The notes under the pieces were generated by a model. It searched no databases. It saw only the letters and a program-made list of their open reading frames with translations, and was not told the origin of the DNA. Positions 12,834 through 37,335 of a DNA stretch of 41,839 nt are shown in pieces (the stretch's first letter is position 1; each line of letters opens with the position of its first letter). The position numbers and the translations under genes are program-made. This DNA is from Methanobacteriota archaeon (lineage in GTDB: Archaea > Altiarchaeota > Altiarchaeia > IMC4 > QMZM01). Location of the stretch: positions 1 to 41,839 of the forward strand of contig CAIYYO010000024.1 of the NCBI GenBank assembly GCA_903930485.1, written 5' to 3'.

Positions 12834-12836
12834 AAG

Positions 12837-15183: not shown

Positions 15184-15203
15184 TTTTTTTCACCACCTAT
15201 CTT

Positions 15204-15965: not shown

Positions 15966-15966
15966 C

Positions 15967-16815: not shown

Positions 16816-16823
16816 CTTGATGA

Positions 16824-17696
16824 CTATTCAAATCTTTCATGGTTTCGGCTTATCAGCCTGCTTGATAAGACGCTTAGTACGAGCACGAACACGAAGGGGA
16901 CTATGCCGAGGCAGAACAGCGCCCTATAATGGAGGCTGTTTACGACCGCTTCACCCATCTCGAGAAGGATGGCCGACGTCAGCGTTTCTCCAGGAACCAG
17001 GAAGCCGGTCGGGAACTTTTCAACGTTCCCTATGACAAGAACGACTGCCATAGTCTCTCCGATCGCCCTACCCATTCCCAAGATGACGCCGGCGACGATG
17101 CCCTGGCTTGCGGCCGGGAGCAGGACCCGGTGAATAGTCTGCCAGTCGGTTGCGCCCATAGCATACGAGCCTTCGCGGTAAAGTCTCGGAACCGCCTCTA
17201 TCGCGTCCTGAGAGATGCTTATGATTATGGGCAGGACCATTATGGACAGGATTATCGATGCCGCGAGGATAGTCTCCCCCGTCGCAAGATTGAACGTAAT
17301 ATGGGCCGCGTTCACGATGATGACTAGGGCGAAGACGCCGTAGATGATGGACGGGATCCCGGCGAGTAATTCGATCGCGGGACGCACGATGTTCTTAGCC
17401 CAGCGCGGAGCGATCTCCGAGAGGAATATGGCGCAGGACAATCCTAAAGGCACCGCTATCAGGAGCGCGCCGAAGGTTACCATGAATGCTGCGACGATGA
17501 ATTGGAACGCGCCGTAGACGTCTTTCGACGGGACCCATCTGGTGCCGAACAGGAAATCCAGGACCCCGACTTTCGTGAACAAGGGAAGGCCGGCATTGAA
17601 GATGAAGAGCATGATAAGCAGTAGCACGACGACGGCGGTTATGCTGAAGAGCATCAACACCCTTCCGACCATTTTTTCAGGCTCGAATCTGCCCAT
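16824..17696 (-). CDS. pstC: Phosphate ABC transporter permease PstC
   Basis: 290-aa permease with the motif REGSYAMGATDWQTIHRVLLP. It sits directly after pstS. Confidence 0.9.
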   Translation of the reverse strand: MGRFEPEKMVGRVLMLFSITAVVVLLLIMLFIFNAGLPLFTKVGVLDFLFGTRWVPSKDVYGAFQFIVAAFMVTFGALLIAVPLGLSCAIFLSEIAPRWAKNIVRPAIELLAGIPSIIYGVFALVIIVNAAHITFNLATGETILAASIILSIMVLPIIISISQDAIEAVPRLYREGSYAMGATDWQTIHRVLLPAASQGIVAGVILGMGRAIGETMAVVLVIGNVEKFPTGFLVPGETLTSAILLEMGEAVVNSLHYRALFCLGIVPFVFVLVLSVLSSRLISRNHERFE

Positions 17697-17698
17697 TT

Positions 17699-18499
17699 TT
17701 ATGGTTTTATTTTTATGAATCCTTCATGTTTGACTATGTCCTGGCCTTCCGGGGAGAGGATGTAGTCGATGAAATCCTTGGAGATACCCTGCGGCTGTCT
17801 CTTGGTTATCAGGTACAGGTTCCTTGAAAGCGGGTACCGCTTGTTCCGGACGTTCTCTTCATCCGGTGACGAGCCGTTCAAGGAAATCGCCTTTATCGAG
17901 TCGTCGAGATAGCCTATGCCGACGTATCCTATCGCGTTCTCGTTCCCTGCGACCGTGAAACGGATGGCCCCGCTCGCAGGCTTCTGCAGCGCGCCGTCCG
18001 AGACGTCGGTTTTGCCCATCACCATGCTCTCGAACATCGACCTAGTCCCGGAGCCGTCTTCTCTCTCGACGAGGACGATGGGCCTATCCGGGCCCCCGAC
18101 TTCTTTATAGTTCTTTATTTTTCCCGAAAAGATGTCTCTGACCTGCTGGAGGGTTAAGTCTTTTATCGTGTTCGACGGATTCACTACAATGGCGATGCAG
18201 TCTATTGCTACAGTCGTCGTCACTAAGTCCGGCCCCTTGGTCTTTTCCTGGGCCGTAAGCTCGCGGGAGGAGGCGCCGATCCCGACAGAGCCTTCTGCGA
18301 CCATGTTTATTCCCGTTCCCGAGCCTCCGCCTTCGACGCCTATCCTTACGCTCGGATGCTCGGTCGAATATGTCTCAGACGCTCTTGTGACGATGGGCTG
18401 TACGGTAGTAGAGCCGGAAATGATCAGATCCTTGCTGTCCTTGCCGACGCAGCCGCCGAACAACGTGAGCGCTATGACGAAGCAGACTAGACTTTTCAT
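17699..18499 (-). CDS. pstS: Phosphate-binding protein PstS (lipoprotein-type signal)
   Basis: The ORF extends to 18592, but the Met at 18499 gives the signal peptide MKSLVCFVIALTLFGGC and avoids overlapping the upstream pstA2. It has SGSTTVQP and GGGSGTG motifs. Confidence 0.85.
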   Translation of the reverse strand: MKSLVCFVIALTLFGGCVGKDSKDLIISGSTTVQPIVTRASETYSTEHPSVRIGVEGGGSGTGINMVAEGSVGIGASSRELTAQEKTKGPDLVTTTVAIDCIAIVVNPSNTIKDLTLQQVRDIFSGKIKNYKEVGGPDRPIVLVEREDGSGTRSMFESMVMGKTDVSDGALQKPASGAIRFTVAGNENAIGYVGIGYLDDSIKAISLNGSSPDEENVRNKRYPLSRNLYLITKRQPQGISKDFIDYILSPEGQDIVKHEGFIKIKP

Positions 18500-18545
18500 C
18501 GCATTTATGTTTAATACTTGCACGCGGAACACAAAAATACAAAAC

Positions 18546-19400
18546 TCACCTCCGTATATTCGCAGACAGCCTGTTGTTGAGCGCCCTCGCAACGTAGTTC
18601 AAGACAAGCACCATGAACAGGAGCAGGGAGGCGACGGCAAAAGCCCGCGTTATGTATTGTTCGTTCTGGGCTTCGGATGTCAGGAAATACAGAGTTGTCG
18701 TGAGCGAATTGAAAGGGTCTGCAGGCGACAAAGGAGTGATCGGTGGCCAGAACGAGGCCAGCCAGATTATCGGAGCAGTCTCTCCGGCAGCCCTTCCCAA
18801 ACCAAGGATGACTCCGGTAATTATCCCCGGAAGCGCAGTTGGCAGTATAACTCCGGTTATCGTCTGAAGCTTTGTCGCGCCAAGGGCATAGCTTCCCTCT
18901 ATCTCGGACCACGGTACGGCCTTTATTGCGACCTCGGCGGTCCTGATGATCGTGGGAAGGATCATGAATCCCAGGGTCAGCCCGGCTGCAAAGACGGACG
19001 GCTTCATTCTCAAATAATAAAGGAACAACGTCAATCCGAATAAGCCGAACACTATCGACGGGATCGCGTTAAGGGCGTCGGAGCCGATTCTCATTAACTT
19101 CGTCGTCCGTCCTTCTTTTGTATACTGAGTCAGGTGGACTGCGGCCCCGATGCCGAGAGGGGTTGCGAAGAGGAGGGCTATCAAAACAGTGTACAGAGTC
19201 CCTATCAAAGCCGGAAGCATTCCGCCTGCAAGCCAGATATTTTCAGGCTGGCCCAAAACAAACTCCACACCCAGGTCGTGGGACCCCCGGTATACTACGT
19301 AGAGGACTATTGAACACAGGATCAGTAGAATGGAACCAGCAGACAGCCACAATAGAGTCATTGCGGCCTTGTTTTTTCTTTGAGGGGTGAAGTCTAACAT
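18546..19400 (-). CDS. pstA: Phosphate ABC transporter permease PstA, second copy
   Basis: 284 aa, paralogous to 15967..16815 (for example GSYALGATKLQTITGVILP). It overlaps pstC2 by 7 nt. Confidence 0.85.
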   Translation of the reverse strand: MLDFTPQRKNKAAMTLLWLSAGSILLILCSIVLYVVYRGSHDLGVEFVLGQPENIWLAGGMLPALIGTLYTVLIALLFATPLGIGAAVHLTQYTKEGRTTKLMRIGSDALNAIPSIVFGLFGLTLFLYYLRMKPSVFAAGLTLGFMILPTIIRTAEVAIKAVPWSEIEGSYALGATKLQTITGVILPTALPGIITGVILGLGRAAGETAPIIWLASFWPPITPLSPADPFNSLTTTLYFLTSEAQNEQYITRAFAVASLLLFMVLVLNYVARALNNRLSANIRR

Positions 19401-20299
19401 TTCGATTGCCTCCTCCTTTTTGCCAGCAGGTATTCTGAGGCCATGCTGAGGGCGAAGGCCATGAAGAACAACGTAAGCCCCAGGGTAAAGAGAGCGGCAT
19501 AATGCATGCTTCCGACAGGCACGTAGGACATATCCAACATTATCGCAGAAGTCAGGGTCTCTCCCCGGCTATCAATGCCGAGGATGTTCGACGGGATCAT
19601 TCCCACGTTGCCGAGGACCAGGACGACGGCCATGGTTTCGCCTATCGCCCTGCCCACTCCCAGGATGACTCCGGCAGCTATCCCGGGCATAGCGCCCGGC
19701 AGAATGACTTTCTGGATGGTCTGCCATTTGGTCGAGCCCAATGCGTAAGACGCTTCCCTGAAACTTCTGGGAACTGCACAAATCGCGTCCTGTGAAATGC
19801 TTATCACAATCGGCAGGATCATAACGCCGAGTATCAGTGCCGCAGCAAGTATCCCCTTGCCGGTTGGAAGAGAATCTCCTGTCAGCAATTTTCCAAGGTC
19901 CTGCTGTACCAGTCCCACGATCACGATCAATGCGAACAGGCCGTAGACTATCGAAGGGATTCCTGCCAGGAGTTCGATTGCCGGCCTCAGGATATTAACG
20001 GCTTTTTTTGGCGCCACCTCTGAAAGAAAGACTGCGCACGCGACTCCCAGCGGAACGGCTATGAAAAGCGCCCCGGCGGTCGTCAGGATAGAGCCGGCTA
20101 TGAATATTCCCGCGCCGTAAACGTTTGCCGTAGGCTTCCATACCGTTCCGGTGAGGAAACCAACCAGGTCTCCGTGAGAAAGGAACGGCAGGGCTTCCTT
20201 GAAAAGAAAAAAGACGATGAACAAAAGGATAAGGGCCGCGGATAACGCTGAGAGGAACAATGCCGCCCTTACCGTCTTTTCCTTGTCGCCGGGTTTCAT
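19394..20299 (-). CDS. pstC: Phosphate ABC transporter permease PstC, second copy
   Basis: 301 aa, paralogous to 16824..17696 (REASYALGSTKWQTIQKVILP). Confidence 0.85.
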   Translation of the reverse strand: MKPGDKEKTVRAALFLSALSAALILLFIVFFLFKEALPFLSHGDLVGFLTGTVWKPTANVYGAGIFIAGSILTTAGALFIAVPLGVACAVFLSEVAPKKAVNILRPAIELLAGIPSIVYGLFALIVIVGLVQQDLGKLLTGDSLPTGKGILAAALILGVMILPIVISISQDAICAVPRSFREASYALGSTKWQTIQKVILPGAMPGIAAGVILGVGRAIGETMAVVLVLGNVGMIPSNILGIDSRGETLTSAIMLDMSYVPVGSMHYAALFTLGLTLFFMAFALSMASEYLLAKRRRQSKC

Positions 20300-20302
20300 G
20301 CC

Positions 20303-21139
20303 TTATCTCAACTTTACGAACCCCTCGTCCTCGACTATTTTTTGTCCCGCGTCCGATAGCACATAATCTATGAATGCTTTCGCATTGCCGGAGGCTTCGC
20401 CTTTCGTCAGCATGTAGAGCTTCCTCGAGATGGGATACGTTCCGGACTTGATCGTCTCCCTGGTAGGCTCTATGCCGCCAATCTTCAGGCCTTTGACAGT
20501 TCCGTCCAGGTATCCTGCGCTGATGTATCCTATCGCGTTCGGGTTCGAGCCCACGGTCGCTTTAACGGCTCCGTTGCTGGGCTGCTGCTCTGCGTTTTGG
20601 GTATTATTGGTCTTGCCTTTGTCCATGATCATATCCTCAAAAGACGTCCTGGTACCGGAGCCTTCCTCCCTTATCACGACCACGATCTGCTTGTCAGGGC
20701 CGCCGAGTTCCTTATAGTTCGTTATCTTGCCGGAAAAGATGTCCTTGATCTGCTGCTTCGTGAGGTCCGAGAGTGTGTTGCCTGGATGGACGACGATCGC
20801 TATCCCGTCGTCGGCTATTTCGTAGACCTTGAGGTTCCCTGCTGCGATCTCATCAGCGGTCAGGTCTCTTGAAGATGCGCCTATGTCTGCCGAGCCTTCG
20901 GAGGCCATCTTTATCCCTGTGCCCGAGCCGCCTCCCGCAACCGAGACCGTGACGCCAGGATTAATCTTCATGTACGCTTCGGCAGCCTTTGCGGCTATCG
21001 GCTGGACGGTCGTCGATCCCGCCACCGTTAGTGTTTGTTTTTGTGTCCCTGGGTTGCTTCCCGTGCATCCTGCGTAGAGCAGGGTGGTTATAAGCAATAC
21101 CACGAGGTATGCTCCTTTTACCTTTCCGTTTATTTTCAT
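20303..21139 (-). CDS. pstS: Phosphate-binding protein PstS, second copy (lipoprotein-type signal)
   Basis: 278 aa with signal and lipobox-like LLYAGC, and AGSTTVQP and GGGSGTG motifs. By eye it is roughly half identical to the other PstS. Confidence 0.9.
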   Translation of the reverse strand: MKINGKVKGAYLVVLLITTLLYAGCTGSNPGTQKQTLTVAGSTTVQPIAAKAAEAYMKINPGVTVSVAGGGSGTGIKMASEGSADIGASSRDLTADEIAAGNLKVYEIADDGIAIVVHPGNTLSDLTKQQIKDIFSGKITNYKELGGPDKQIVVVIREEGSGTRTSFEDMIMDKGKTNNTQNAEQQPSNGAVKATVGSNPNAIGYISAGYLDGTVKGLKIGGIEPTRETIKSGTYPISRKLYMLTKGEASGNAKAFIDYVLSDAGQKIVEDEGFVKLR

Positions 21140-21258: not shown

Positions 21259-21702
21259 ATGAAAAAGAGCCCCATCATCTACTGGAGCATGACCGGAAAC
21301 ACGAAGGCGATGGCAGAGGCGATAAAGGAAGGCATCGAATCCGCCGGCGGCAAGGCGGAGTTAAAGACGGTGGAAGAAGCAAGCCTCGATGATGTAAGGA
21401 AAGCGGACGCCTTCGCAATCGGCTCGCCGGCCATGGGTATAGAAGAGCTTGCGGACGAGATCGAAGTATTCGTCGACGGCATGGAAAAGGAAAAGATAAC
21501 CGGGAAAACCGTAGGGGTTTTCGGCTCGTACAAATGGGGCGACGGGGCCTGGATGAAAGATACGGTCGCCCGGCTGAGAAAGGACGGCTTTTCCGTAGTG
21601 GGCGTAGGCCTCATCCTGCAACTTACGCCGGACGAAGCGGGACTGCAGGCATGCAGAGCCTATGGAAAAAAGATAGCCGAAGCCGCCAAAAAAAGAGGAT
21701 AA
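21259..21702 (+). CDS. Short-chain flavodoxin
   Basis: 147 aa with the N-terminal FMN phosphate-binding loop IIYWSMTGNTKAMAE. Confidence 0.85.
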   Translation: MKKSPIIYWSMTGNTKAMAEAIKEGIESAGGKAELKTVEEASLDDVRKADAFAIGSPAMGIEELADEIEVFVDGMEKEKITGKTVGVFGSYKWGDGAWMKDTVARLRKDGFSVVGVGLILQLTPDEAGLQACRAYGKKIAEAAKKRG

Positions 21703-21703
21703 A

Positions 21704-22249
21704 ATGCTAAACATCCCCGTGATACTAGGGACCGCACGTGAGGGACGCCAGTCGGAGAAAGCGGCCAACTACATGGTCAGGGAAGCGATGAAAGCGGGCT
21801 GTGAAACAGAGCTTCTGGACGTCAGAGATTACCGCATCGGTGCGACAGACAAGAAAGAGAACGATCCTAAAGCAAAAAAGCTCGCGGAAAAGATAGATAA
21901 AGCCGACGCATTGATAATAGTGTCGCCGGAATACAACCACGGATATCCCGGAGAACTGAAGATGATGCTTGACATGCTGTATCTGCAATACTTCAATAAA
22001 CCCGTAGGCTTCTGCGGGGTTTCCATCAGTCCGTTCGGCGGCGTTCGCGTAGTTGAGCAGCTGCGTCTAGTCGCTGCCGAGTTACATATGGTCTCGATAA
22101 GAAGCGCGTTGTATTTCTCCAGGATACAAGATTTTTTCGACGAGAAGGGAGAGCCCGTAGACAAAACCTGCCCTGCACAGACTAAAATCTTCCTTGACGA
22201 ATTGATATGGTACGGAGACGCTCTGAAGACAAAACGGATGAATAGGTGA
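21704..22249 (+). CDS. NAD(P)H-dependent FMN reductase family protein
   Basis: 181 aa, starting 1 nt after the flavodoxin stop. It has the IIVSPEYNHGYPGELKMMLD motif. Confidence 0.75.
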   Translation: MLNIPVILGTAREGRQSEKAANYMVREAMKAGCETELLDVRDYRIGATDKKENDPKAKKLAEKIDKADALIIVSPEYNHGYPGELKMMLDMLYLQYFNKPVGFCGVSISPFGGVRVVEQLRLVAAELHMVSIRSALYFSRIQDFFDEKGEPVDKTCPAQTKIFLDELIWYGDALKTKRMNR

Positions 22250-22303
22250 CTAAATGGCGTCTTATTACCAAGTTCCGACAAATATATACTTGAGGTGGTT
22301 GGT

Positions 22304-24931
22304 ATGTCAAGATTTTTTCTGTATACTGTAGGTGTTCTCTTTGCCTTCATAGTATTTTTTTCCGGGTGTATCAGCGGCCCGGGTGTGTATGGAAACGCTT
22401 CGACCACAACTCCGCAGGGGAATGCTACGAACCCGGAAATAAAAAACGCATCGATTGAGATTACCCAAAACCCGTCGCTTGGAGCCATAATTACCGATGG
22501 CGACGGCATGACCTTGTACGTGTTTACAAAAGACGTGCAGGGTAAGAGCAACTGCTACGCCCAATGCGAAGCCGCATGGCCGCCGTTGTTTGTCACGGGA
22601 AGCGTCACCTCCTCAGACCTTTCTCAAGAAGACCTCGGAGTGACCCTACGACAGGATGGACGCACGCAGGCTACCTTTAAGGGCATGCCTCTATACTACT
22701 TCGCGCAGGATAAAAAACCCGGAGACATAGCTGGCGAGGGCTACGGAAAGGTATGGTATGCCCTTGTGTTGCCTTCCGACAAAGCGATCCCTCCTGAGGC
22801 CGCGCAATACTCTAAAGACTGGCCTCTACCCAATAAGGACTACAGCAACACCCGCGCCACCAAGGACTCATCCATAAACTCCGGGAACGTGAAAGACCTG
22901 GGAGTAGGATGGTCGTTCCCCATACCCGGAGTAGGCGCCTACGGGGGCGCGGCAAGCACGCCGCTGATACTCGGGAATACGGTATACTTCCAGGACCTCA
23001 AAGCCAACGTCTTTGCATTGGATCTCCAAAACGGCAAAGCGAAGTGGTCGAAGATGTATGATATTTCGGCGGTGGTCGGTCCCAACGGCCCTGCGGTAGC
23101 CTACGGCAAAGTATTTGTCGCAAAAGACCTCTACAGCATGGTCGCATTGGATATCAATTCAGGCGAGGAGCTGTGGTCTACAAAGCTGTCAGATGTGAAA
23201 ACAACGGGCATAGACATCCAGCCAACGGCCTATGACGGCCTAATATACACATCGACGGTTCCGGGAACTGCCGATATATTCTACGCGCCGGGAGGTATCG
23301 GCGTCATATACGCCCTCGACCAGAAAGACGGTTCAGTCAAATGGAACTTTTCCACGGTGGATTCACCCGACCTATGGGGGCATCCCGAAGTAAACAGCGG
23401 AGGGGGCTGCTGGTATACCCCCTCGATAGACCTCGCGACCGGCATAATGTACTGGGGAATAGCCAACCCCGCGCCCTTCCCTGGAACGGAGCAATGGCCC
23501 AGCGGCTCAAGCAGGCCCGGACCCAACCTGTATACCGACAGCATGATGGCCCTGGAACACAGGACCGGAATGATGAGCTGGTATAAACAAGTCCTCCAGC
23601 ACGACCTCTTCGACTACGACTTCCAGATAGCGCCGATCCTTGCCAGCGCGAAAATAAACGGAAAACAACAGGACATCGTCATAGGCGCCGGGAAGATGGG
23701 GAGAGTATATGCCTTCAACCGCGGCACGGGAGAGATACTATGGTCGGCAAACGTCGGAGAACATAACGGGAACGATCAGCTCGACCGCCTGCCCCCAGGG
23801 ACTACGAAGGTCATACCTTCCGCTCTTGGAGGGGTGGAAACGCCGATGGCTTATTCAGACGGCATCGTGTACGTGCCGGTGGTCGATCTGCCGATGGATT
23901 GGACGCCTACAAAATTAGATTTTTCGTCGGTGAATTTCTCCAGCTCGAAGGGAGAGCTTGCGGCAATAGATGCGAGTACCGGCAAGACCTTATGGAATAA
24001 GGTTTTTGACTCATTGAATGTCGGAGGGGCCACGGTTGTGAACGACCTGGTATTCACCGCCACATATGGCGGAAACATCTACGCCTTCAAAAAAGACACC
24101 GGGGAGCAATTATTCCAGTACAAGGCGCCTGCGGGGATCAATGCCTGGCCGGCCGTAGCCGGAGACACCATAATATGGCCTGCCGGCGTAGGCGGCACTC
24201 CAATGCTCGTAGCCCTGAAAATAGGGGCTAAAGATGTTCCTGCGTCCTCACCCGCGCTCGCGATAATAAAACCGAATAAAGGCTCCACGATATTGGCCGG
24301 GGATATAGAAACAGCCGTCAAAGTGTCGAATTTCAACCTGGTCCATAAGCCCGGAGACGCCAACGTAAAAGGGGAGGGACATCTTATCTACTATTTAGAC
24401 GTTGAACCGCCGACGGACCCGCTGCTGCCTGCGTTCACTTCCACCGGCACATACGGGGCGGACTACGGCACTTCACACATATGGATGGGAGTAGCACCGG
24501 GCGCCCATACTTTCGCGGTGCAGCTGGTCAACAACGACCACACGCCTCTGAGACCCCCCGTCATAGCAAGAGCATCGTTCAATACAATAGCATACAACTA
24601 CGGGGAAGGCGCCGGAGGAGAGACTGCCAAAATAACCCTGACGGCGAAGAACAGAGCATTCGACAGGAAACAAATAATCGTCCCGGCAGGCGCGCTGGTA
24701 ACGATAGTATTCAACAACCAGGACGAAGGGATCCAACACAACTTCGCGGTCTACGAAGACAAGGAAGCGACTAAACTAGTCTTCCGGGGAGGTCTTATAA
24801 CTGGCGTCTCAACCACTACCTACAAATTCGCCGCTCCGATGAAGACCGGAACCTACTTCTTCCAGTGCGACCCCCACTCTAAGATCATGAACGGGGAATT
24901 CATCGTGCAAATCTCGGGAGGATCGATATGA
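22304..24931 (+). CDS. Secreted/lipid-anchored multidomain protein: Yx(FWY)xxD lipoprotein domain, PQQ-dehydrogenase-like beta-propeller, DUF4399-like domain and C-terminal type-1 cupredoxin
   Basis: The ATG at 22304 is preceded by GAGGTGG (the ORF track starts at the GTG at 22295). The signal plus FFSGC resembles a lipobox. MTLYVF...CYAQCEAAWPP...PLYYFAQD matches the COG4315-type domain. There are six or more A(L/F)D..(T/N/D)G...W propeller repeats. Quinoprotein dehydrogenase signatures are present: GGGCWYTPSIDLATGIMYWGIANPAP and NLYTDSMMALEHRTGMMSWYKQVLQHDLFDYD. The C-terminal copper ligands are HNF...C-DP-H-SKI-M. Confidence 0.8.
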   Translation: MSRFFLYTVGVLFAFIVFFSGCISGPGVYGNASTTTPQGNATNPEIKNASIEITQNPSLGAIITDGDGMTLYVFTKDVQGKSNCYAQCEAAWPPLFVTGSVTSSDLSQEDLGVTLRQDGRTQATFKGMPLYYFAQDKKPGDIAGEGYGKVWYALVLPSDKAIPPEAAQYSKDWPLPNKDYSNTRATKDSSINSGNVKDLGVGWSFPIPGVGAYGGAASTPLILGNTVYFQDLKANVFALDLQNGKAKWSKMYDISAVVGPNGPAVAYGKVFVAKDLYSMVALDINSGEELWSTKLSDVKTTGIDIQPTAYDGLIYTSTVPGTADIFYAPGGIGVIYALDQKDGSVKWNFSTVDSPDLWGHPEVNSGGGCWYTPSIDLATGIMYWGIANPAPFPGTEQWPSGSSRPGPNLYTDSMMALEHRTGMMSWYKQVLQHDLFDYDFQIAPILASAKINGKQQDIVIGAGKMGRVYAFNRGTGEILWSANVGEHNGNDQLDRLPPGTTKVIPSALGGVETPMAYSDGIVYVPVVDLPMDWTPTKLDFSSVNFSSSKGELAAIDASTGKTLWNKVFDSLNVGGATVVNDLVFTATYGGNIYAFKKDTGEQLFQYKAPAGINAWPAVAGDTIIWPAGVGGTPMLVALKIGAKDVPASSPALAIIKPNKGSTILAGDIETAVKVSNFNLVHKPGDANVKGEGHLIYYLDVEPPTDPLLPAFTSTGTYGADYGTSHIWMGVAPGAHTFAVQLVNNDHTPLRPPVIARASFNTIAYNYGEGAGGETAKITLTAKNRAFDRKQIIVPAGALVTIVFNNQDEGIQHNFAVYEDKEATKLVFRGGLITGVSTTTYKFAAPMKTGTYFFQCDPHSKIMNGEFIVQISGGSI

Positions 24932-25464
24932 AAAACATAAAAAAGTTTGGGAGGATATTTACGGCATTCTTTATTGTCTCTGTTTTTTTAACGCTCGGAT
25001 GCGTCCAGCAGCCGGGGAACCCTGGAACGACTCCGACAACGACTGTTGAGGCCACTACGACGGAGACGCCGGCAACGCCGACCGAGGTCCAGTCAACGGC
25101 GCCTCAGGTCACGATCCCTGCCGCGACCCCAACTCGGGAAACGAATACGGAAAAGATCGCTACGACGACTATGACGGCAACGGCAATTCCAACGACTGCC
25201 CAGAATACGGCAAAGACGGTTCAGGTTTCGATAAGCGGCTTCGCATTCCACCCTTCGATGGTAAATATTAATAAAGGCGATACCGTAGTCTGGACTAACA
25301 TGGATACTGCCCCCCACACCGTTACGTCAGATTCGGGAGGAGAGCTGTCTTCAAGCACGTTATCCCAGGGAGACACGTACTCGCACACCTTCAACTCCAC
25401 CGGGGCGTTTGCTTATCACTGCAGCATACACACTTCGATGAAAGCTGATGTGAACGTTAAATAA
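24928..25464 (+). CDS. Cupredoxin (amicyanin/halocyanin-like blue copper protein), lipoprotein with a Thr/Pro-rich linker
   Basis: 178 aa. Its start overlaps the upstream stop in an ATGA, and a GGGAGG ribosome-binding site is present. It has a signal plus LTLGC and a ~70-aa T/P/A-rich linker. The type-1 Cu ligands are APHTV...YHCSIHTSM. Confidence 0.8.
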   Translation: MKNIKKFGRIFTAFFIVSVFLTLGCVQQPGNPGTTPTTTVEATTTETPATPTEVQSTAPQVTIPAATPTRETNTEKIATTTMTATAIPTTAQNTAKTVQVSISGFAFHPSMVNINKGDTVVWTNMDTAPHTVTSDSGGELSSSTLSQGDTYSHTFNSTGAFAYHCSIHTSMKADVNVK

Positions 25465-25568
25465 CCCTAATAGTCGACGGCAGGCCGTGCATGCTGGAGC
25501 TTTCTTTAGTATCCCTCATAACCCTTTCCTATAAATCCGGGGCTGTCTTATATATTTAAGGTGAGACT

Positions 25569-26063
25569 ATGGACCGGGTAATAAATCTGTTGATTTTCGC
25601 AGTTATTTTGTCGCTTATCCTGTCCCCAGGCTGCGCGCATCAAAGCACAAAGCCGCAAGCTGAAACGACCACAGTCCCTGAAGAGAACCCCGTTCCTACG
25701 GAAAGCCCCATAGCAACGACTACGACTCTTACGAGCTCCAACGGATTCAACTCCTCCATCAACGATTCAGAGGCGAAGTCTACTACGACTACGCTGCCCG
25801 GGGACGTATCGAAGATGATCAATCTGGCGATAAAGAATTTTGAGTACAGCGAGGTCGCGCTGAGGATCCGTAAGGGCGACACGATCGTATGGACAAACCT
25901 CGACACGGTCGCACATACCGTGTCCTCGGACACGGGCGGCGAACTGGATTCCGACACGCTCGTCAGGGGAGAGACTTTCATGCACACCTTCAACAGCCCC
26001 GGGGTATTCAACTACCATTGCAAGATCCATCCGTCGATGAAAGCCAAGGTGATAGTCTCATGA
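25569..26063 (+). CDS. Cupredoxin, second paralog, lipoprotein with a Thr-rich linker
   Basis: 164 aa with an AGGTGA ribosome-binding site, a signal plus LSPGC, and type-1 Cu ligands VAHTV...YHCKIHPSM. Confidence 0.8.
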   Translation: MDRVINLLIFAVILSLILSPGCAHQSTKPQAETTTVPEENPVPTESPIATTTTLTSSNGFNSSINDSEAKSTTTTLPGDVSKMINLAIKNFEYSEVALRIRKGDTIVWTNLDTVAHTVSSDTGGELDSDTLVRGETFMHTFNSPGVFNYHCKIHPSMKAKVIVS

Positions 26064-26395
26064 CTGATGACCGGGCAACGTCCGACGCCATTGTCTTTAT
26101 CTACGTGACGAACCCTTCAAAGAAGGAAGCCGAGCGGATCGCGAAGAGCCTGATGGACAGAAAGCTCGTCGCATGCGCTAACATGTTCCCTATCGAGAGC
26201 ATCTATCCCTGGGAGGGGAAGATCGTGGACGGGAAGGAGTACGCCCTAATATTAAAGACCGTCCCGGAAAAATCCGGGCTGGTCGAGGAAGCCGTGAAGG
26301 AGATGCACCCCTACAAAGTGCCCTGCATAATCACTTTTCAAGTAAGCCCCAACAAGGAATTCGGGAACTGGCTCAGGAGCGAGCTGGGTCCCTGA
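26060..26395 (+). CDS. cutA: Divalent-cation tolerance protein CutA
   Basis: The Met at 26060 forms an ATGA overlap with the cupredoxin stop. The longer ORF from 25889 is an out-of-frame overlap of the cupredoxin gene. CutA motifs are present: VFIYVT..S.KEAERIAKSL...KLVACAN..P..S.Y.W.GKI. Confidence 0.85.
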   Translation: MTDDRATSDAIVFIYVTNPSKKEAERIAKSLMDRKLVACANMFPIESIYPWEGKIVDGKEYALILKTVPEKSGLVEEAVKEMHPYKVPCIITFQVSPNKEFGNWLRSELGP

Positions 26396-26415: not shown

Positions 26416-28317
26416 ATGCCTTCAAAAAACGCACCAACCGCCTTGGAAGATCTGAGAAAAAAGAGCCCGGAGAAATTCCCATCATCGGAAACCGCATTCA
26501 GCCGCATACATTCCGGGGACCACATACTGATAGGCTCGGGCTGCGGCGAGCCTCAATATCTGTTAAAGTCTTTCATCTCGTATGTCCGGGCCAACCCCAA
26601 GGCGATCCTTGATGCCGAAGTATTCCAGTTATGGGCCCTGGGAAACGTTCCTTATGGCGACGAGCGGCTTGCAGAGAACCTGCGCCACAATTCTTTTTTC
26701 ATAGGCTGCGAAGTCCGGGAAGCCGTGAACAAAGGGCTTGCCGACTATACGCCGATCTCTCTTTCAGACGTGCCGGATCTTTTTTTCAGGGGCATCGTGC
26801 CTGTCGACGTCGCTCTCATACAGGTTTCTCCCCCGGACGTTGAAGGATTCATGAGCCTCGGGGTCAGCGTCGACATCGTGAAGTCGGCAGTAAAACAGGC
26901 ATCCCTCGTAATCGTGCAGGTCAACTGCAACATGCCGAGGGTTTCCGGAGACGGACGGCTCCATGCGGACGATGTCGACTATATCCTTCCATGCGATGAG
27001 CCCCTTATCGAATACCGGCCCGAGGTCGACGAGGAGACTGCTGGAAAGATCGGCAACTATTTATCCCGCCTGGTGCATGACGGTGAGACGATACAAGCCG
27101 GCTACGGCGGGCTCGTCTCTTCTGCAGTGGCGCATCTTAAAGACAAGAAGCATCTGGGCGTACATACTGAGCTTTTGTCCGGCGGCCTGGTGAGCCTCTT
27201 GAGATCCGGGGCCGTTGACAACAGCAGTAAGACGGTCAACCCCTGGAAGACGGTTGCATCATTTTGCATGGGTACGCAAGAGGATTACCGATTCCTTGAC
27301 GGCAACACGGGAATAGAGTTCAGGGGAATAGAGTATACGAACGACCCGCTCGTCATCGCCGGGCACGAGAACATGACTGCGATAAACAGTGCCCTGGGCA
27401 TAGACCTGACCGGTCAGGCGACCGAGGAGTCTGTCGGAAAGTCTTTCTACGGCGGGATAGGCGGGCAGGCGAATTATATGCGCGGGGCGGTCCTTTCCAG
27501 GAACGGTAAAAGCATTCTCGTCCTCGAATCGACTGCCGAAGGCGGGAAAGTTTCTCGGATAATGCCTTTCCTCGAAGAAGGCGCCGGCGTCACCTTGAAC
27601 CGCGGCGACGTCCATTACGTGGTCACCGAGTACGGAATAGCATACCTGCACGGAAAGAACATACGCGAGAGAGCCATGGAACTGATATCCATCGCCCACC
27701 CGCGTTTCAGGCCGCACCTCCTCGCAATCGCTAAGAAGAACAATATCGTGTACCCCGACCAGGCTTTGATATCGGGAAAGAACGGAACATATCCCGAGGG
27801 ACTGGAGGCGTACCGGACGACGAGGACTGGGCTAGGCATCCTCCTTCGGCCGGTTAAGATAACCGACGAGCACCTTCTAAAGGACTTCTTCTATTCCCTT
27901 TCAGAGGAGAGCCTCTATCACCGGTTCATTTCTGTTAGGAAAGACATGCCTCACCACAGGCTCCAGGATTATACGGTCATAGACTACGAAAAACGCATGA
28001 TAATACTCGCAGTCTCGCCGGACGAAAAAGACGAAGAACTTATAGGAGTAGGACAATATGATATACTGGAGGACTCCCACACAGCAGAGATCGCCTTCGT
28101 CGTCAGGGACAAATACCAGAACAAAGGCGTGGGTAAAGAGCTTTTGAAATACCTCACGTACATCGCGAAAAAGAAAGGCTTGCTTGGCTTCAAGGCCGCA
28201 GTCCTGCCTGACAATAAAGCGATGACGACGCTCTTCGAAGAGGCCGGATTCGAAGCAGACAAAAAGACCGCCGACGGATTATACGAATACAGATCGATCT
28301 TCAGGAGGAGACAATGA
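26416..28317 (+). CDS. Fusion protein: acetyl-CoA hydrolase/transferase-family domain (4-hydroxybutyrate CoA-transferase-like) plus C-terminal Pat-type GNAT acetyltransferase domain
   Basis: 633 aa with a GGTG ribosome-binding site. The N-terminal ~450 aa carry GVHTE and GGIGGQANYMRGA motifs. The C-terminal ~165 aa carry YHRF...DY.....LAV....ELIGVGQY......TAEIAFVVRDKYQNKGVGKELL...A...G......VLPDNKAM..LFEEAGF, which is typical of the protein lysine acetyltransferase (Pat) GNAT. Confidence 0.75.
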   Translation: MPSKNAPTALEDLRKKSPEKFPSSETAFSRIHSGDHILIGSGCGEPQYLLKSFISYVRANPKAILDAEVFQLWALGNVPYGDERLAENLRHNSFFIGCEVREAVNKGLADYTPISLSDVPDLFFRGIVPVDVALIQVSPPDVEGFMSLGVSVDIVKSAVKQASLVIVQVNCNMPRVSGDGRLHADDVDYILPCDEPLIEYRPEVDEETAGKIGNYLSRLVHDGETIQAGYGGLVSSAVAHLKDKKHLGVHTELLSGGLVSLLRSGAVDNSSKTVNPWKTVASFCMGTQEDYRFLDGNTGIEFRGIEYTNDPLVIAGHENMTAINSALGIDLTGQATEESVGKSFYGGIGGQANYMRGAVLSRNGKSILVLESTAEGGKVSRIMPFLEEGAGVTLNRGDVHYVVTEYGIAYLHGKNIRERAMELISIAHPRFRPHLLAIAKKNNIVYPDQALISGKNGTYPEGLEAYRTTRTGLGILLRPVKITDEHLLKDFFYSLSEESLYHRFISVRKDMPHHRLQDYTVIDYEKRMIILAVSPDEKDEELIGVGQYDILEDSHTAEIAFVVRDKYQNKGVGKELLKYLTYIAKKKGLLGFKAAVLPDNKAMTTLFEEAGFEADKKTADGLYEYRSIFRRRQ

Positions 28318-30443
28318 CCGATAAACCGGACATAACAAGCCTGTTCGAGCCTCGCACCGTAGCGGTTGTCGGAGCCTCCCACAACCCTGAAAAGATCGGC
28401 TACAAGATTGTCGAGAACATAATCGCCTGCGGATACGCCGGCAGGATCTGTCCGATAAATCCCGAAGGCGGCGAGATACTGAAGCTCCCGGTCTACAAGA
28501 ACGTGGGCGACGTCGACGGGGAAATCGACGTGGCGGTCATAACCATCCCCTCGAAATACGTTTACGACGCCGTCAAGGCCTGCGCGGACAAAGGCGTCAA
28601 GTACTCGCTCATAATATCTTCCGGTTTCTCGGAGGTCGGCGACTACGAGAGCGAAAAGAAGATCGTCTCATGCGCGCAGGAAGGCGGTATGCGCATCATC
28701 GGGCCCAACATCTTCGGCATGTATGTCGCTAAGTCCTCGTTCAACGCAACCTTCGGTACAAGGGACGTACGCCCGGGCGGGATAGCGATAATAACCCAGA
28801 GCGGCGCCCTGGGAATATCCCTCATGGGCAAGACGGCGGTGATGAACATAGGGCTTTCAGGGATGTTCTCTCTCGGGAACAAGTCCGACGTAGACGAATC
28901 CGACCTGCTGGAATACCTGATAACCGACGACAGCACGCGGATAATAATGATGTACGTCGAAGGCGTAAAGAACGGCGGCCGTCTTGTGGAGCTGCTCAAG
29001 AAAGCTACCTCAAAAAAGCCAGTGATCGTCATCAAGGCCGGCAGGTCGAAGCGCGGGGCGATGGCGGCTGCATCCCATACCGGCTCCCTTGCAGGTTCGG
29101 ATGCGGTCTTCTCGGACATAATGAAGCAGTGCGGCGTCATACGCGCCGAAAGCATTCAGGAGGCCCTTGACGCGTGCAAGTACATCTCTAATTCCCCTCA
29201 GCCGAAGGGCGAGAATTCGGTCATAATAACTAACGGAGGCGGCATGGGAGTCATGGCAGCCGACGCATGCGAAAAATATTCCGTGAACCTTTACGACAAT
29301 ATAGAAGACCTTAAAAGGACATTTTCAAAAGTCGTGCCGGCATTCGGTTCCGTGAAGAATCCAGTGGATCTTACCGGCCAGGCGACGCTGGAGAACTACA
29401 AGACTGCGATAGACGCGGCGCTGGCGAACAAAGACATCCACACGGTTATATGCCTTGGATGCGAGACAGCGTTCTTCGATGCATCCAAGATAGCAGAGAT
29501 GATTAAAGGGTTGTATTCAAACAGCAAGCCTGCCAAGCCTTTGGTCTATTCGTTTTTCGGCGGCGCAAGGATTGAGGATTGCATAACGAGCCTTAAAGCC
29601 GTCGACATACCGGCGTTCTCCGACGTCTACGAAGCGGTCTCCTGTATGGGTGTATTGTACGAGAACTACAGGAACACGGCTTACGCGACCGAATCCGACC
29701 AGAAGGAAGAACAAGGGATCGACGATCCTTCAATAGACGTGATAGTCAAAAAGGCACTGGGTGAGGGCCGGCACTTCCTGCTGTCTTACGAGGCTGAAAA
29801 AGTCATGGCCGCCGCAGGTATACGGATGCCTAAGAGCTTCCTTGCGAAAGACTTTGACGAGGCCGTGAAATTCGCGGAAAAGATCGGTTATCCCGTAGCG
29901 CTGAAGGTCGTCTCAAAGGATATAATCCATAAAAGCGATGCAGGCGGCGTTGCTTTGAATCTCGAGAACAGGCAGGAGGTTTTGGACGCGTATCAGGTGA
30001 TACTCTACAACTGCAAAAAAGCCAAACCGGACGCAGTCATAGAAGGCGTCTCCGTGAGCGAGATGATGAAGAAGGAAATTGAAACCATCGCCGGCGCGGT
30101 AAGGGATAAATCGTTCGGGCCCGTCGTGATGTACGGCCTAGGCGGCGTGTACGTGGAGATATTGAACGATGTCGCATTCAGGTCTTTCCCTCTAGGCAGG
30201 AAGGACATACTCAAGATGATAAACGAAACAAAGTCGTCGCAGCTCCTCATGGGCGCAAGGGGCGAGAAACGCAAAGACGTCGGCTCCGTCGTGGATGCCG
30301 TGTCAAAGCTCGGAACAATACTCGCAAGGCATGAAGAGATATCTGAAATAGAGATCAACCCGCTCATGGTCTATGAGGACGGGCAGGGGGTAATGGCCCC
30401 GGATGTGCGGATCCTGTTGTCAAAGGGTCCGGAGGCGAAATAG
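28314..30443 (+). CDS. ADP-forming acetyl-CoA synthetase (acetate--CoA ligase, NDP-forming; fused alpha-beta)
   Basis: 709 aa, with its start overlapping the upstream stop in an ATGA. It has a CoA-binding N-terminus (VAVVGAS..P.KIGY), the phosphohistidine loop AAASHTGSLAGS and a C-terminal ATP-grasp region (GYPVALKVVS.DI.HKSDAGGV). Confidence 0.9.
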   Translation: MTDKPDITSLFEPRTVAVVGASHNPEKIGYKIVENIIACGYAGRICPINPEGGEILKLPVYKNVGDVDGEIDVAVITIPSKYVYDAVKACADKGVKYSLIISSGFSEVGDYESEKKIVSCAQEGGMRIIGPNIFGMYVAKSSFNATFGTRDVRPGGIAIITQSGALGISLMGKTAVMNIGLSGMFSLGNKSDVDESDLLEYLITDDSTRIIMMYVEGVKNGGRLVELLKKATSKKPVIVIKAGRSKRGAMAAASHTGSLAGSDAVFSDIMKQCGVIRAESIQEALDACKYISNSPQPKGENSVIITNGGGMGVMAADACEKYSVNLYDNIEDLKRTFSKVVPAFGSVKNPVDLTGQATLENYKTAIDAALANKDIHTVICLGCETAFFDASKIAEMIKGLYSNSKPAKPLVYSFFGGARIEDCITSLKAVDIPAFSDVYEAVSCMGVLYENYRNTAYATESDQKEEQGIDDPSIDVIVKKALGEGRHFLLSYEAEKVMAAAGIRMPKSFLAKDFDEAVKFAEKIGYPVALKVVSKDIIHKSDAGGVALNLENRQEVLDAYQVILYNCKKAKPDAVIEGVSVSEMMKKEIETIAGAVRDKSFGPVVMYGLGGVYVEILNDVAFRSFPLGRKDILKMINETKSSQLLMGARGEKRKDVGSVVDAVSKLGTILARHEEISEIEINPLMVYEDGQGVMAPDVRILLSKGPEAK

Positions 30444-31478
30444 ATGCAAAAGATAATTATCGCTTCTGCAAGCAGAGGCGCAGGGAAGACTTTTGTGACC
30501 GTGGGACTGATGAAGGCGGCCGGGAAGGGTCTCGGCTACATAAAGCCGCTCGGGAACCGGCTAGTCTACTCCCGGAAAAAACTCTGGGACTATGATGCTG
30601 CGCTCATAGCCAAGGTCTTCAAGCTCCAGATGCCGCCGGAAGATCTCACGATAGGCTTCGAGCATGCGAAGATCAAGCACTCATACACGAAGGATGCCGT
30701 GAAAAAGAAGGTCCTCGAGCTTTCGGCCGAAGCGTCGAAGGGCAAGAAAGCCCTCATCATAGAAGCCGGAACAGATTTGTGTCACGGGACAAGCATAAAC
30801 CTCGACCCGATCTCGCTTGCCAAATACGTGAAAGGGAAGATTGTCCTCGTCGTGAACGGGGACGATTACGACGCCCTCGACGATTCGCTCTTCTTCGGCT
30901 CGTGCATCAAGAAGACAGGCGCAGGGTTCGCAGGAGTGATAATAAACAACGTCAAAGACCCGTCGGGGTTCCGGGACCTGTACCTGCCGCGGATCAGGGA
31001 AGCAGGGATAAAGGTTCTTGGGATCATTCCATACAACGACGCCTTAACCCACTACGATGCCGGCTATCTGGCCGATAATCTTTTCTCCAAGACGTTAACC
31101 GGCGAAGCCGGCCTGGGCAAGGTCGTAGAGAATGTGTTCGTAGGAGACGTGTCTTCCACGACGGCTCTCAAGAACCCCTCATTCCATAAGAAAGGCAACC
31201 TCGTCATAACCGGAGGCGACAGGAGCGACATGATCCTCGCGGCCATAGAAACGGGCGCATCATGCGTTATATTGACCAACAACATAATGCCGCACGCGAA
31301 CATAATATTAAAGGCATCGCACGCGCAGGTCCCACTGCTGCTGGTTCCGACCGATACGTACACGACGGCAGTAAGGGTCGAGCACCTCGAGCACATGCTG
31401 ACGGAAAAAGACGAGGAGAAGATCGCAGCCCTGGGCAGGATGGTCAAGAAGCACGTGAAGCTGAAAGAAATATTTTAA
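30444..31478 (+). CDS. DRTGG-domain protein resembling the N-terminal regulatory region of phosphotransacetylase (no PTA catalytic domain)
   Basis: 344 aa; its ATG directly abuts the upstream TAG. It has a P-loop-like ASASRGAGKTFVTVGL and a DRTGG-type LVITGGDRSDMILAAIETGASCVILTNN. Confidence 0.7.
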   Translation: MQKIIIASASRGAGKTFVTVGLMKAAGKGLGYIKPLGNRLVYSRKKLWDYDAALIAKVFKLQMPPEDLTIGFEHAKIKHSYTKDAVKKKVLELSAEASKGKKALIIEAGTDLCHGTSINLDPISLAKYVKGKIVLVVNGDDYDALDDSLFFGSCIKKTGAGFAGVIINNVKDPSGFRDLYLPRIREAGIKVLGIIPYNDALTHYDAGYLADNLFSKTLTGEAGLGKVVENVFVGDVSSTTALKNPSFHKKGNLVITGGDRSDMILAAIETGASCVILTNNIMPHANIILKASHAQVPLLLVPTDTYTTAVRVEHLEHMLTEKDEEKIAALGRMVKKHVKLKEIF

Positions 31479-34284: not shown

Positions 34285-34289
34285 TTTTT

Positions 34290-35870: not shown

Positions 35871-35882
35871 ATTTTTCTTCTT

Positions 35883-37334: not shown

Positions 37335-37335
37335 T

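Follow-up and report, generated by a model that had tools for sequence, protein, structure and literature searches.

A blue-copper-linked propeller protein related to PQQ alcohol dehydrogenases in an Altiarchaeota-like archaeon

An 875-amino-acid (aa) protein that joins an eight-bladed beta-propeller to its own type-1 (blue) copper domain is encoded in a 41,839-nucleotide (nt) stretch of archaeal DNA from contig CAIYYO010000024.1. The whole of this stretch is called the window here, and gene coordinates refer to it (Table 1). Two genes for cupredoxin lipoproteins and one for a CutA1 homologue (178, 164, and 111 aa) follow head to tail on the plus strand. We propose, with a probability of about 0.6, that the 875-aa protein is a membrane-anchored, extracytoplasmic redox enzyme from a distinct and widespread clade of the pyrroloquinoline quinone (PQQ) alcohol dehydrogenase superfamily and that its electrons go to blue copper. 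Catalysis, cofactor, direction of electron flow, and physiological role are what we infer from the comparisons described below.

Relationship of the propeller to PQQ dehydrogenases

The initial annotation, made from the sequence, had divided the protein into a lipoprotein signal, a Lipoprotein_15 region, a propeller, a DUF4399-like domain, and a C-terminal copper domain. This five-part architecture was borne out by Pfam and NCBIfam models and by an AlphaFold2 (AF2) model built on 111 homologues. The mean predicted local distance difference test score (pLDDT) was 82.8; the propeller, the middle domain, and the cupredoxin were mostly above 90, and residues 19-156 at the N terminus were poorly predicted. 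The propeller matched PF01011 with an E-value of 3.4e-46. A single-sequence search of the PDB returned XoxF (6oc5) at 1.3e-24, together with quinohemoprotein alcohol dehydrogenases (ADHs). When the family profile was used instead, 1kb0 came first (2.3e-41), followed by 1kv9, 1yiq, PedH, and XoxF, while BamB reached only about 1e-19 and tetrathionate hydrolase was a weak match (1e-8). In a Foldseek search with the AF2 model, ranks 1 to 30 were all genuine eight-bladed PQQ ADHs or methanol dehydrogenases (MDHs), with E-values of 2.6e-32 to 6e-25 and template modeling (TM) scores to the target of 0.58-0.74; BamB and YxaL began at rank 31, at about 1e-19. The predicted eight-bladed fold is homologous to the solved PQQ ADH and MDH structures, and sequence identity to the type II quinohemoprotein ADHs is about 22-24%. 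Two signatures quoted in the initial annotation as typical of the methanol/ethanol family, one opening with GGGxW and the other closing with DYD, are real and align to the matching motifs of XoxF and the quinohemoprotein ADHs. Profile and structure searches, which had been put forward as a check, thus placed PQQ ADHs and MDHs ahead of BamB. Together, the sequence comparisons and the predicted fold indicate that the propeller groups with genuine PQQ alcohol and methanol dehydrogenases and not with BamB.

Residue assignments were made by sequence alignment to solved structures. Residues E185, W245, N263, D308, and K335 of 1kb0, which we take to be active-site positions, were reproduced by the HMMER numbering, as was the Cys-Cys pair 116-117. 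The tryptophan that stacks under PQQ (1kb0 W245, MDH W243) is kept as W370, the asparagine metal ligand (N263, MDH N261) as N388, the catalytic base (D308, MDH D303) as D437, and the lysine that contacts the PQQ carbonyls (K335, MDH R331) as K464. At the position of the lanthanide ligand, which is T310 in 1kb0 and Asp in PedH and XoxF, the Asp is kept as D439. D437-Y-D439 aligns with the DFD of XoxF and PedH, a D-x-D motif of the lanthanide type. All five residues were invariant in 111 of 111 close homologues. Across 86 diverse representatives, down to about 35% identity, they were among the best-conserved positions (W370 in 74, N388 in 72, D437 in 71, D439 in 78, and K464 in 76), and the family-specific residues E512 (49/86) and D304 (40/86) were less constant. 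Since this conserved core is the part of the catalytic site that is shared with quinoprotein dehydrogenases, it suggests a planar cofactor lying above the Trp and a hard metal coordinated by one Asn and two Asp residues.

Copper sites, redox partners, and gene neighborhoods

Copper ligands were identified in all three cupredoxins: H812, C855, H858, and M862 in the fused domain, H130, C165, H168, and M171 in the 178-aa protein, and H116, C151, H154, and M157 in the 164-aa protein. The fused-domain and 178-aa ligands were aligned to auracyanin (auracyanin A for the fused domain), plastocyanin, and the cupredoxin domain of NirK; for the 164-aa protein, comparison with its 178-aa paralogue, and not with a solved structure, was used to pick out the ligands in the sequence. 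Each protein has the His, Cys, His, and Met of a type-1 copper site with a C-x2-H-x2/3-M loop. The complete sites claimed earlier were therefore confirmed, with no ligand missing after alignment. The fused domain scored 35.5 bits with Cupredoxin_1 (cut-off, 27) and 26.5 bits with Copper-bind (PF00127; cut-off, 21.2), and the stand-alone proteins scored 42.2 and 36.5 bits with the latter model. Their best NCBIfam scores were amicyanin or halocyanin-like, but the amicyanin equivalog TIGR02657 was not reached (46.1 and 47.9 bits against a cut-off of 110.2), so that they are amicyanin-like at most. The 178-aa protein has a lipobox-like Cys25 and a Thr/Pro-rich stalk of about 70 aa, and the 164-aa protein has a lipobox-like Cys22 and a Thr-rich stalk; both stalks are about 60-75 residues long. 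Such stalked lipoproteins would fit a role as tethered, mobile electron carriers.

The propeller belongs to a large family. More than 2,000 relatives turned up in a word-indexed search, none with a label more specific than "PQQ-binding-like beta-propeller repeat protein" or "BamB family". An exhaustive search of 1.84 billion representatives gave 421 clusters at 50% identity with E ≤ 1e-30, and one-genome-per-species data contained at least 549 matching loci. Taxonomy and neighborhoods of the relatives were taken from the best 80 of these at least 549 loci. The archaea among the best 80 were Methanotrichaceae, Methanoculleus, Methanoregula, Methanospirillum lacunae, Methanomassiliicoccales, and Thermoplasmatota. 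The bacteria, Firmicutes among them, were Dehalococcoidia, other Chloroflexota, Patescibacteria (Collierbacteria and Daviesbacteria), Syntrophomonadaceae, Peptococcaceae, Atribacterota, and Actinomycetota. Far from being rare or unique, the architecture is common and has been annotated only generically. A literature search yielded no paper characterizing the propeller family or the propeller-cupredoxin fusion, and an exact-cluster look-up of the window proteins gave no named relative at ≥90% identity.

Redox domains accompany the propeller at most of these loci. In 46 of 81 loci, the propeller was fused to a cupredoxin or had one next to it on the same strand; L063 has a sulfocyanin-type fusion, and a DOMON domain was fused or adjacent in 12 further loci, mostly from Methanothrix (the DOMON match in P0093 had an E-value of 3.1e-26). 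Counting cupredoxin, sulfocyanin, and DOMON together, a partner was present at 59 or more of the 81 loci, and several of the remainder are contigs that end at the propeller. No fusion to cytochrome c was seen, in that a CxxCH motif was absent from 120 of 120 homologues. These results led us to read the propeller as a redox module in which blue copper or DOMON takes the role of cytochrome c, and the partner pattern is the strongest argument for that reading. The idea that a dehydrogenase is joined to its own acceptor, proposed in the initial annotation for this one protein, is strengthened accordingly.

The partner domains vary among relatives. One or two DOMON domains stand in place of a cupredoxin just downstream of the propeller match in L006, L007, L008, L009, L012, L014, L017, L019, L043, L046, L075, and L076; DOMON-bearing relatives include Methanothrix harundinacea metagenome-assembled genomes (MAGs), one Atribacterota MAG, and Dehalococcoidia. 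In L042, a DOMON domain lies upstream and two cupredoxins lie downstream. In three MAGs, two from Methanotrichaceae and one from Methanomassiliicoccales, five to seven cupredoxin domains surround the propeller (L011 3385-8628, L044 5304-9539, and L079 7867-9782), and such arrays may be a copper-based counterpart of multiheme electron chains. A Pfam census of 149 neighboring open reading frames (ORFs) revealed no general partner and only minority families (M50 peptidase, 5; FMN reductase, 3; Hcp, 3; GSDH, 3). The three GSDH matches (PF07995, the six-bladed PQQ sugar dehydrogenase type) came from the L001-L057 set, which indicates that a second putative PQQ enzyme adjoins the propeller in a few genomes.

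Some neighborhoods point to oxygen. In four Chloroflexota loci (L026, L063, L068, and L080), the propeller gene is directly upstream of COX2-COX1 and is accompanied by a cupredoxin or sulfocyanin. The COX2 subunit carries an extra blue-copper domain in L026, where a heme O synthase gene then follows COX2-COX1, and a cytochrome c in the other three loci. This arrangement fits a chain from dehydrogenase through blue copper to terminal oxidase. P0016, the closest relative of the 875-aa protein (69% identity), has the same Lipoprotein_15-propeller layout and no cupredoxin. It is encoded in a one-strand island (L081 1-8372) that starts with genes for a copper ATPase, an FMN reductase, an Fe/Mn superoxide dismutase (SOD), a DUF2769 protein, and a Rieske protein and continues, after the propeller gene, with genes for a cyclase, a rubrerythrin-like protein, a peroxiredoxin, a glutaredoxin, a thioredoxin reductase-like protein, and a secreted molybdenum oxidoreductase. 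The window shares three of these genes, namely, those for the FMN reductase, the secreted molybdenum oxidoreductase, and the Fe/Mn SOD. In L057 (Daviesbacteria), genes for SOD, copper ATPase, FMN reductase, cupredoxin, and propeller lie together.

SOD genes were found within 6 kb in 4 of 81 loci; FMN reductase genes (4/81) and copper ATPase genes (4/81) were equally frequent; Hcp genes were found in five loci, all from Methanoculleus or unclassified Methanobacteriota MAGs, and COX genes were found in four. Chance would give about 0.3 occurrences in 81 loci, calculated for a single-copy gene, a 12-kb interval, and an approximately 3-Mb genome, with loci that are not phylogenetically independent. 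The associations concern a minority of loci yet point consistently toward oxygen. Small soluble Rieske proteins are encoded near the propeller in two of the closest relatives (L081 2088-2399 and L082 7086-7406), and no Rieske match at E ≤ 1e-5 was obtained in the other 80 loci. The secreted molybdenum enzyme of the window has no obvious electron donor.

Locus, host, and remaining genes of the window

The genes, their coordinates, and the two ATGA stop/start overlaps were as first annotated, and the same four genes appear in the public gene call of the metagenomic contig (ENA ERZ1426824, 66 kb). An alternative GTG start at 22295 would extend the 875-aa protein to 878 aa. One overlap, at 24928, joins the 875-aa and 178-aa genes (cgatATGAaaa), and the other, at 26060, joins the 164-aa gene to cutA (ctcATGActg). 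A 105-bp gap separates the 178-aa and 164-aa genes. Because the 164-aa gene has a TATA-like element of its own in this gap ("tataaat", about 26 nt before the likely transcript start and followed by GGTGA upstream of the gene), the cluster possibly comprises two transcription units, one with the 875-aa and 178-aa genes and one with the 164-aa gene and cutA. Although both overlaps are present, "one operon" is too strong a description, given this element and the lack of conservation of CutA. The CutA1 homologue itself is clear (PF03091, 104.2 bits against a cut-off of 22.4; NF041095, 108.7 bits, slightly under the cut-off of 120) and adjoins the propeller cluster in the window, but a CutA partner was absent from 80 of 80 related loci. 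This ruled out CutA as a conserved part of the module; it is a local, lineage-specific companion and incidental to the propeller and its partners.

In the 875-aa protein, the signal peptide and lipobox read MSRFFLYTVGVLFAFIVFFSG/C22, and Cys22 would be the site of lipid modification. The Lipoprotein_15 region scored 93 bits with PF03640 (cut-off, 24.4). For Lipoprotein_15 and DUF4399, a search for solved structures or literature gave nothing useful, and Lipoprotein_15 is without a solved relative. The middle domain is present, with a GEGHLIY motif (residues 690-696, 24371-24391), but its DUF4399-like label is weak: PF14347 matched residues 650-765 with 19.3 bits (E-value, 0.0015), under the gathering cut-off of 28. 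The family consensus at this motif is GEGHxHY, and its second His, present in 78 of 94 sequences aligned at that column, is lost in the window protein. If H-x-H binds metal, the window copy of the domain may be degenerate.

Table 1. Features of the window and coordinates of the Chloroflexota oxidase loci (the latter numbered within each locus)
Feature	Coordinates	Strand	Basis
NrdD and TiaS marker genes	9293-11419 and 13222-14469		
Flavodoxin, then FMN reductase (21704), immediately upstream of the 875-aa gene	21259-22249		Public gene call
875-aa multidomain lipoprotein gene	22304..24931	+	ORF from ATG; Pfam, NCBIfam, AF2 model
Signal peptide with lipobox-like FSGC end (Cys22)	22304..22369	+	Sequence; AF2 helix, residues 2-18
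Two Lipoprotein_15 (Yx(FWY)xxD) repeats	22475..22765	+	PF03640, two stretches
Eight-bladed propeller, PQQ alcohol dehydrogenase superfamily (residues 161-645)	22784..24238	+	PF01011, TIGR03075, PDB alignments, Foldseek
All-beta linker domain, weakly DUF4399-like	24251..24598	+	PF14347; pLDDT about 90; motif counts
Fused type-1 copper (cupredoxin) domain	24620..24910	+	Pfam; auracyanin A alignment
178-aa cupredoxin lipoprotein gene	24928..25464	+	ORF, Pfam, NCBIfam
TATA-like "tataaat" and GGTGA, candidate second promoter and ribosome-binding site	25530..25564	+	Sequence reading
164-aa cupredoxin lipoprotein gene	25569..26063	+	ORF, Pfam, NCBIfam
CutA1 homologue gene (111 aa)	26060..26395	+	PF03091
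Secreted Oxidored_molyb lipoprotein	31534-32178		Pfam
Fe/Mn SOD	32261-32878		Pfam
Propeller-heme-copper oxidase loci	L026 5776-14197; L063 5962-10920; L068 5848-13437; L080 5917-12501		

The archaeal origin of the DNA, assumed from the start, was supported by genes for Nre, TiaS, a Cdc48-type ATPase, NrdD, and a group-4 hydrogenase/Mrp-like cluster. NrdD was 82% identical to a "Candidatus Altiarchaeota archaeon" protein, and all named relatives among the best 120 matches of TiaS (up to 68% identity) were Altiarchaeota, Altiarchaeia, or Altiarchaeales. A methanogen host, which GC content and the top matches of the propeller had suggested, was ruled out by these two markers in favor of Altiarchaeota. 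Unlike the host markers, the propeller protein has methanogens and Dehalococcoidia as its nearest named relatives, and this discrepancy suggests lateral spread of the module; the patchy distribution of the family is likewise consistent with lateral transfer among anaerobes. A double membrane has been reported for "Candidatus Altiarchaeum", and by analogy a literal periplasm is possible in the Altiarchaeota-like host.

Several other genes of the window were noted. Two consecutive phosphate ABC transporter gene sets lie on the minus strand at 14482-21139, with PhoU, PstB, and two rounds of permease pairs, each pair having its own PstS-like binding protein (17699-18592 and 20303-21139). Also on the minus strand, at 33766-40933, a group-4 [NiFe]-hydrogenase/Mrp-like cluster encodes two Proton_antipo_M subunits together with a 20-kDa subunit and a fused 30/49-kDa subunit and is relevant to the energy metabolism of the Altiarchaeota-like host. 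Three genes at 26416-31478, beginning 20 bp past cutA, encode an acetyl-CoA hydrolase/transferase-GNAT fusion, an ADP-forming acetyl-CoA synthetase-like protein, and a DRTGG/AAA_26 protein and could share a transcript with cutA. About 10 kb upstream, at 11625-13253, is a TctA-family tricarboxylate transporter gene; PQQ is a tricarboxylate, yet nothing connects the two, and the propeller enzyme would act on the outer side of the cytoplasmic membrane.

Proposed function and competing explanations

In the enzyme that we propose, the funnel of the propeller would be the place where a substrate is oxidized, to judge by analogy an alcohol, an aldehyde, or a sugar-like compound. N388, D437, and D439 would hold a metal, W370 would form the floor of the quinone site, K464 would lie at the quinone carbonyls, and D437 would act as the base. 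With these residues retained, the site would most likely contain Ca2+ or Ln3+ as a hard metal ion, together with a planar o-quinone, probably PQQ from the environment. Single electrons would pass to the fused type-1 copper and then to the two amicyanin-like cupredoxins, tethered to the membrane on their Thr/Pro stalks. The last acceptor would be an oxygen-linked sink encoded elsewhere, as suggested by the heme-copper oxidases of the Chloroflexota loci and the oxidative-stress islands of this lineage.

A number of observations weigh against this proposal, many of them in the active site. The vicinal Cys-Cys ring above PQQ (1kb0 C116-C117) falls in a five-residue deletion, where the family reads GPNGPAV, and the metal ligand E185 (MDH E177) aligns with the aromatic F326 in a loop with an insertion. 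The PQQ contacts R122 (MDH R109), E70 (MDH E55), and T167 (MDH T159) correspond to N261, A217, and D304, and N394-W395 (MDH N394), shortened by a one-residue deletion, corresponds to E512. The part of the lost metal Glu might be taken by D324/D325 or E512. The replacements as a whole are predicted to make the pocket more acidic and ill-suited to the tricarboxylate PQQ. In the AF2 model, pLDDT was lower in the funnel loops (residues 321-330, 351-370, and 391-410). The curated cut-off of every PQQ family model was missed, including TIGR03075 for the PQQ methanol/ethanol family (192.6 bits against 480.05) and TIGR03074 (98 against 833). Since about half of the PQQ contacts are gone, the pocket is more acidic, and the curated models reject the protein, we concluded that the propeller family forms a separate clade of the superfamily. 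The initial annotation was thus right that the propeller is homologous to the methanol/ethanol family and more than a set of generic repeats, and a check of ligands finds the Trp, the Asn, the catalytic Asp, the second Asp, and the Lys in place; with the Cys-Cys pair, the metal Glu, and three PQQ-binding residues (Arg, Glu, and Asn) all lost, a genuine quinoprotein remains unproven. Given the remodeled pocket, a cofactor other than PQQ is also conceivable, and sequence does not decide between them.

Other points against the proposal concern electron transfer and the supply of PQQ. Strict anaerobes use low-potential electron carriers, and blue copper is too positive in potential to feed them. 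The 41.8-kb window encodes no terminal acceptor, which contradicts the earlier view of a self-contained electron-transfer chain, and beyond the redox domain no general conserved partner emerged from all-versus-all clustering of 905 neighboring ORFs. Neither Patescibacteria nor methanogens, both hosts of the family, are known to synthesize PQQ. Methanosarcina barkeri is without pqq genes (PMC6315138). No pqq gene was found among the approximately 30 window ORFs scanned. Missing PQQ biosynthesis is nevertheless not a strong objection to the quinoprotein reading, because the enzyme would be extracytoplasmic and apo-quinoproteins that scavenge PQQ are known. The glucose dehydrogenase of Escherichia coli is one such apo-quinoprotein. 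Bacteria of the candidate phyla radiation (CPR) have been argued to obtain PQQ from their hosts (bioRxiv 10.64898/2026.07.10.737718). The statement in the initial annotation that PQQ biosynthesis is not generally known in archaea needs correction, since earlier work described both a PQQ synthase and PQQ enzymes there (PMC7300363).

Two explanations differ over whether PQQ is present at all. The protein could be a genuine PQQ/lanthanide ADH that uses scavenged PQQ and in which the cupredoxin replaces the cytochrome c of type II quinohemoprotein ADHs. The invariant D437-x-D439, a motif used to predict lanthanide dependence, would agree with this, as would the retention of W370, N388, and K464 and the identity of the top sequence and structure matches (quinohemoprotein ADHs, PedH, and XoxF). 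There is also precedent for PQQ enzymes in organisms that do not make the cofactor, in the form of the CPR proposal (bioRxiv 10.64898/2026.07.10.737718), and archaeal PQQ dehydrogenases with DYD and without Cys-Cys have been proposed to feed blue-copper proteins (PMC7300363). We nevertheless hold this explanation to be tentative and well short of even odds: the TIGR03075 cut-off was missed widely, of the PQQ and metal contacts that were mapped, roughly one in two is missing or has become acidic, substrate evidence is absent, and the gene context, as judged by neighbor clustering and the Pfam census, gives no pointer to alcohol or C1 metabolism. The protein could instead be an "empty" quinoprotein homologue, with a metal-only acidic funnel or another cofactor, that carries out a different redox reaction, for example, with O2, reactive oxygen, sulfur, or metal species, and with cupredoxins that supply or remove electrons. 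Loss of the Cys-Cys roof and of the carboxylate binders and gain of the invariant acidic residues D231, D304, D434, E512, and D581 are consistent with such a site. The second-best NCBIfam match was TIGR04528, "acido-empty-quinoprotein group A", yet its 162.3 bits are far under the cut-off of 650. Tetrathionate hydrolase, which the family profile matched weakly, is an example of the same fold functioning without PQQ. Some lineages in which the family is found have minimal biosynthesis, and its gene recurs beside genes for SOD, peroxiredoxin, Hcp, FMN reductase, and copper ATPase. Against an empty site, the best-kept residues are the stacking Trp, the PQQ-contacting Lys, and the metal and base residues, which are hard to explain without a planar cofactor. 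We give this explanation, too, less than even odds, but the remodeled acidic pocket makes it a serious competitor.

Two further explanations dispense with catalysis. The propeller and its copper proteins might form a surface electron conduit for extracellular electron uptake, as with direct interspecies electron transfer (DIET) and as speculated for SqpA of Methanothrix. Genes for surface PQQ-domain proteins and cupredoxins are expressed, or more highly expressed, when DIET takes place in Methanothrix and M. barkeri (PMC10470525, PMC6315138), and the arrays of five to seven cupredoxin domains and the long stalks of the stand-alone cupredoxins would suit conduction. The same two studies, however, call the idea speculative, and the potentials of methanophenazine and ferredoxin lie far below those of blue copper and PQQ (PMC6315138). 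In addition, the family is found in Patescibacteria and beside the terminal oxidases of Chloroflexota, and its strictly conserved catalytic Asp and metal site favor chemistry over conduction alone, so that a pure conduit is improbable. A noncatalytic, BamB-like scaffold or binding protein fused by chance to surface domains is less credible still, although many members are publicly annotated "BamB family" and both PQQ_2 and BamB models match. TIGR03300 scored 96 bits against 285 and NF008351 scored 79.7 against 423, and the Foldseek E-values for PQQ dehydrogenases were better by 10 to 13 orders of magnitude. Moreover, the active-site residues are invariant, a redox partner domain occurs at no fewer than 59 of the 81 loci, and the hosts are archaea and monoderm bacteria without BAM machinery. 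On the basis of the model cut-offs, the fold ranking, and the conserved active-site residues, the BamB or noncatalytic reading was rejected.

For the redox enzyme that we favor, the closest characterized proteins are the type II quinohemoprotein ADHs of Comamonas testosteroni (1KB0) and Pseudomonas putida HK5 (1KV9 and 1YIQ). Both groups have an eight-bladed propeller, a C-terminal one-electron domain, an extracytoplasmic location, the Trp floor, and the Asn, Asp, and Lys. Unlike those enzymes, the propeller protein has a cupredoxin instead of a cytochrome c as its carrier, lacks the Cys-Cys pair, the Glu, and the Arg, Glu, and Asn contacts, has additional Lipoprotein_15 and DUF4399-like domains and a lipid anchor, and occurs in anaerobic hosts. 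The blue-copper protein azurin is the physiological acceptor of type II quinohemoprotein ADHs. With XoxF, PedH, and ExaF, the family has in common the D-x-D motif, invariant here, but it has neither the bidentate Glu nor the Cys-Cys pair, and its carrier is a cupredoxin where theirs is cytochrome cL or XoxG. The methylamine dehydrogenase-amicyanin system is likewise a periplasmic quinoprotein that donates electrons to an amicyanin-type cupredoxin encoded beside it; its cofactor, however, is the protein-derived tryptophan tryptophylquinone (TTQ), its catalytic subunit is unrelated, and the cupredoxins of the window fall under the amicyanin cut-offs.

Three further systems resemble the family. 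Heterotrophic marine Thaumarchaeota have divergent PQQ dehydrogenases without Cys-Cys, some with DYD or DXD, that have been proposed as donors to blue copper, cytochrome c being absent (PMC7300363). They can be likened to the present family by description; their hosts, in contrast, are aerobes with a PQQ synthase and a heme-copper oxidase, and no cupredoxin fusion was reported (PMC7300363). SqpA of Methanothrix thermoacetophila (Mthe_0878) and the M. barkeri PQQ-domain proteins, whose role has been hypothesized from expression (PMC10470525, PMC6315138), are likewise surface PQQ-like propellers of anaerobic archaea poor in cytochromes, and surface copper proteins are considered alongside them. 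That likeness is one of description and annotation, and the public annotation, "BamB, PQQ-like repeat", is the same as that of the propeller family. For relatives of the Methanothrix harundinacea type, a precedent for fusion of a PQQ propeller to DOMON is the fungal CcPDH, which combines an AA12 propeller with an AA8 DOMON-type cytochrome b; unlike the propeller family, it is six-bladed, unrelated in sequence, and eukaryotic (bioRxiv 10.64898/2026.07.10.737718).

A broader proposal is that the 875-aa protein founds a class of extracytoplasmic oxidoreductases, so far undescribed, from anaerobes without cytochrome c (Altiarchaeota, methanogens, Dehalococcoidia, and Patescibacteria). Its members would have a remodeled, highly acidic site in a propeller derived from PQQ dehydrogenases, with either scavenged PQQ and a lanthanide or Ca ion or else an undescribed cofactor, and would be wired to blue copper or DOMON for oxygen-linked electron disposal or defense at the cell surface. 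In this full form, the proposal is doubtful. If the family does carry out catalysis, the reach of quinoprotein-type chemistry, possibly of the lanthanide-dependent kind, would extend to strictly anaerobic archaea and to minimal-genome bacteria unable to make PQQ. Such an activity would also account for blue-copper proteins in organisms without cytochrome c and would give a concrete identity to the "surface quinoproteins" that have been invoked in interspecies electron transfer without biochemical evidence. The recurrence of the gene beside terminal oxidases and antioxidant genes suggests an unrecognized surface system by which anaerobes handle oxygen. A single biochemical characterization would allow reannotation of thousands of genes now labeled "BamB" or "PQQ-like repeat".

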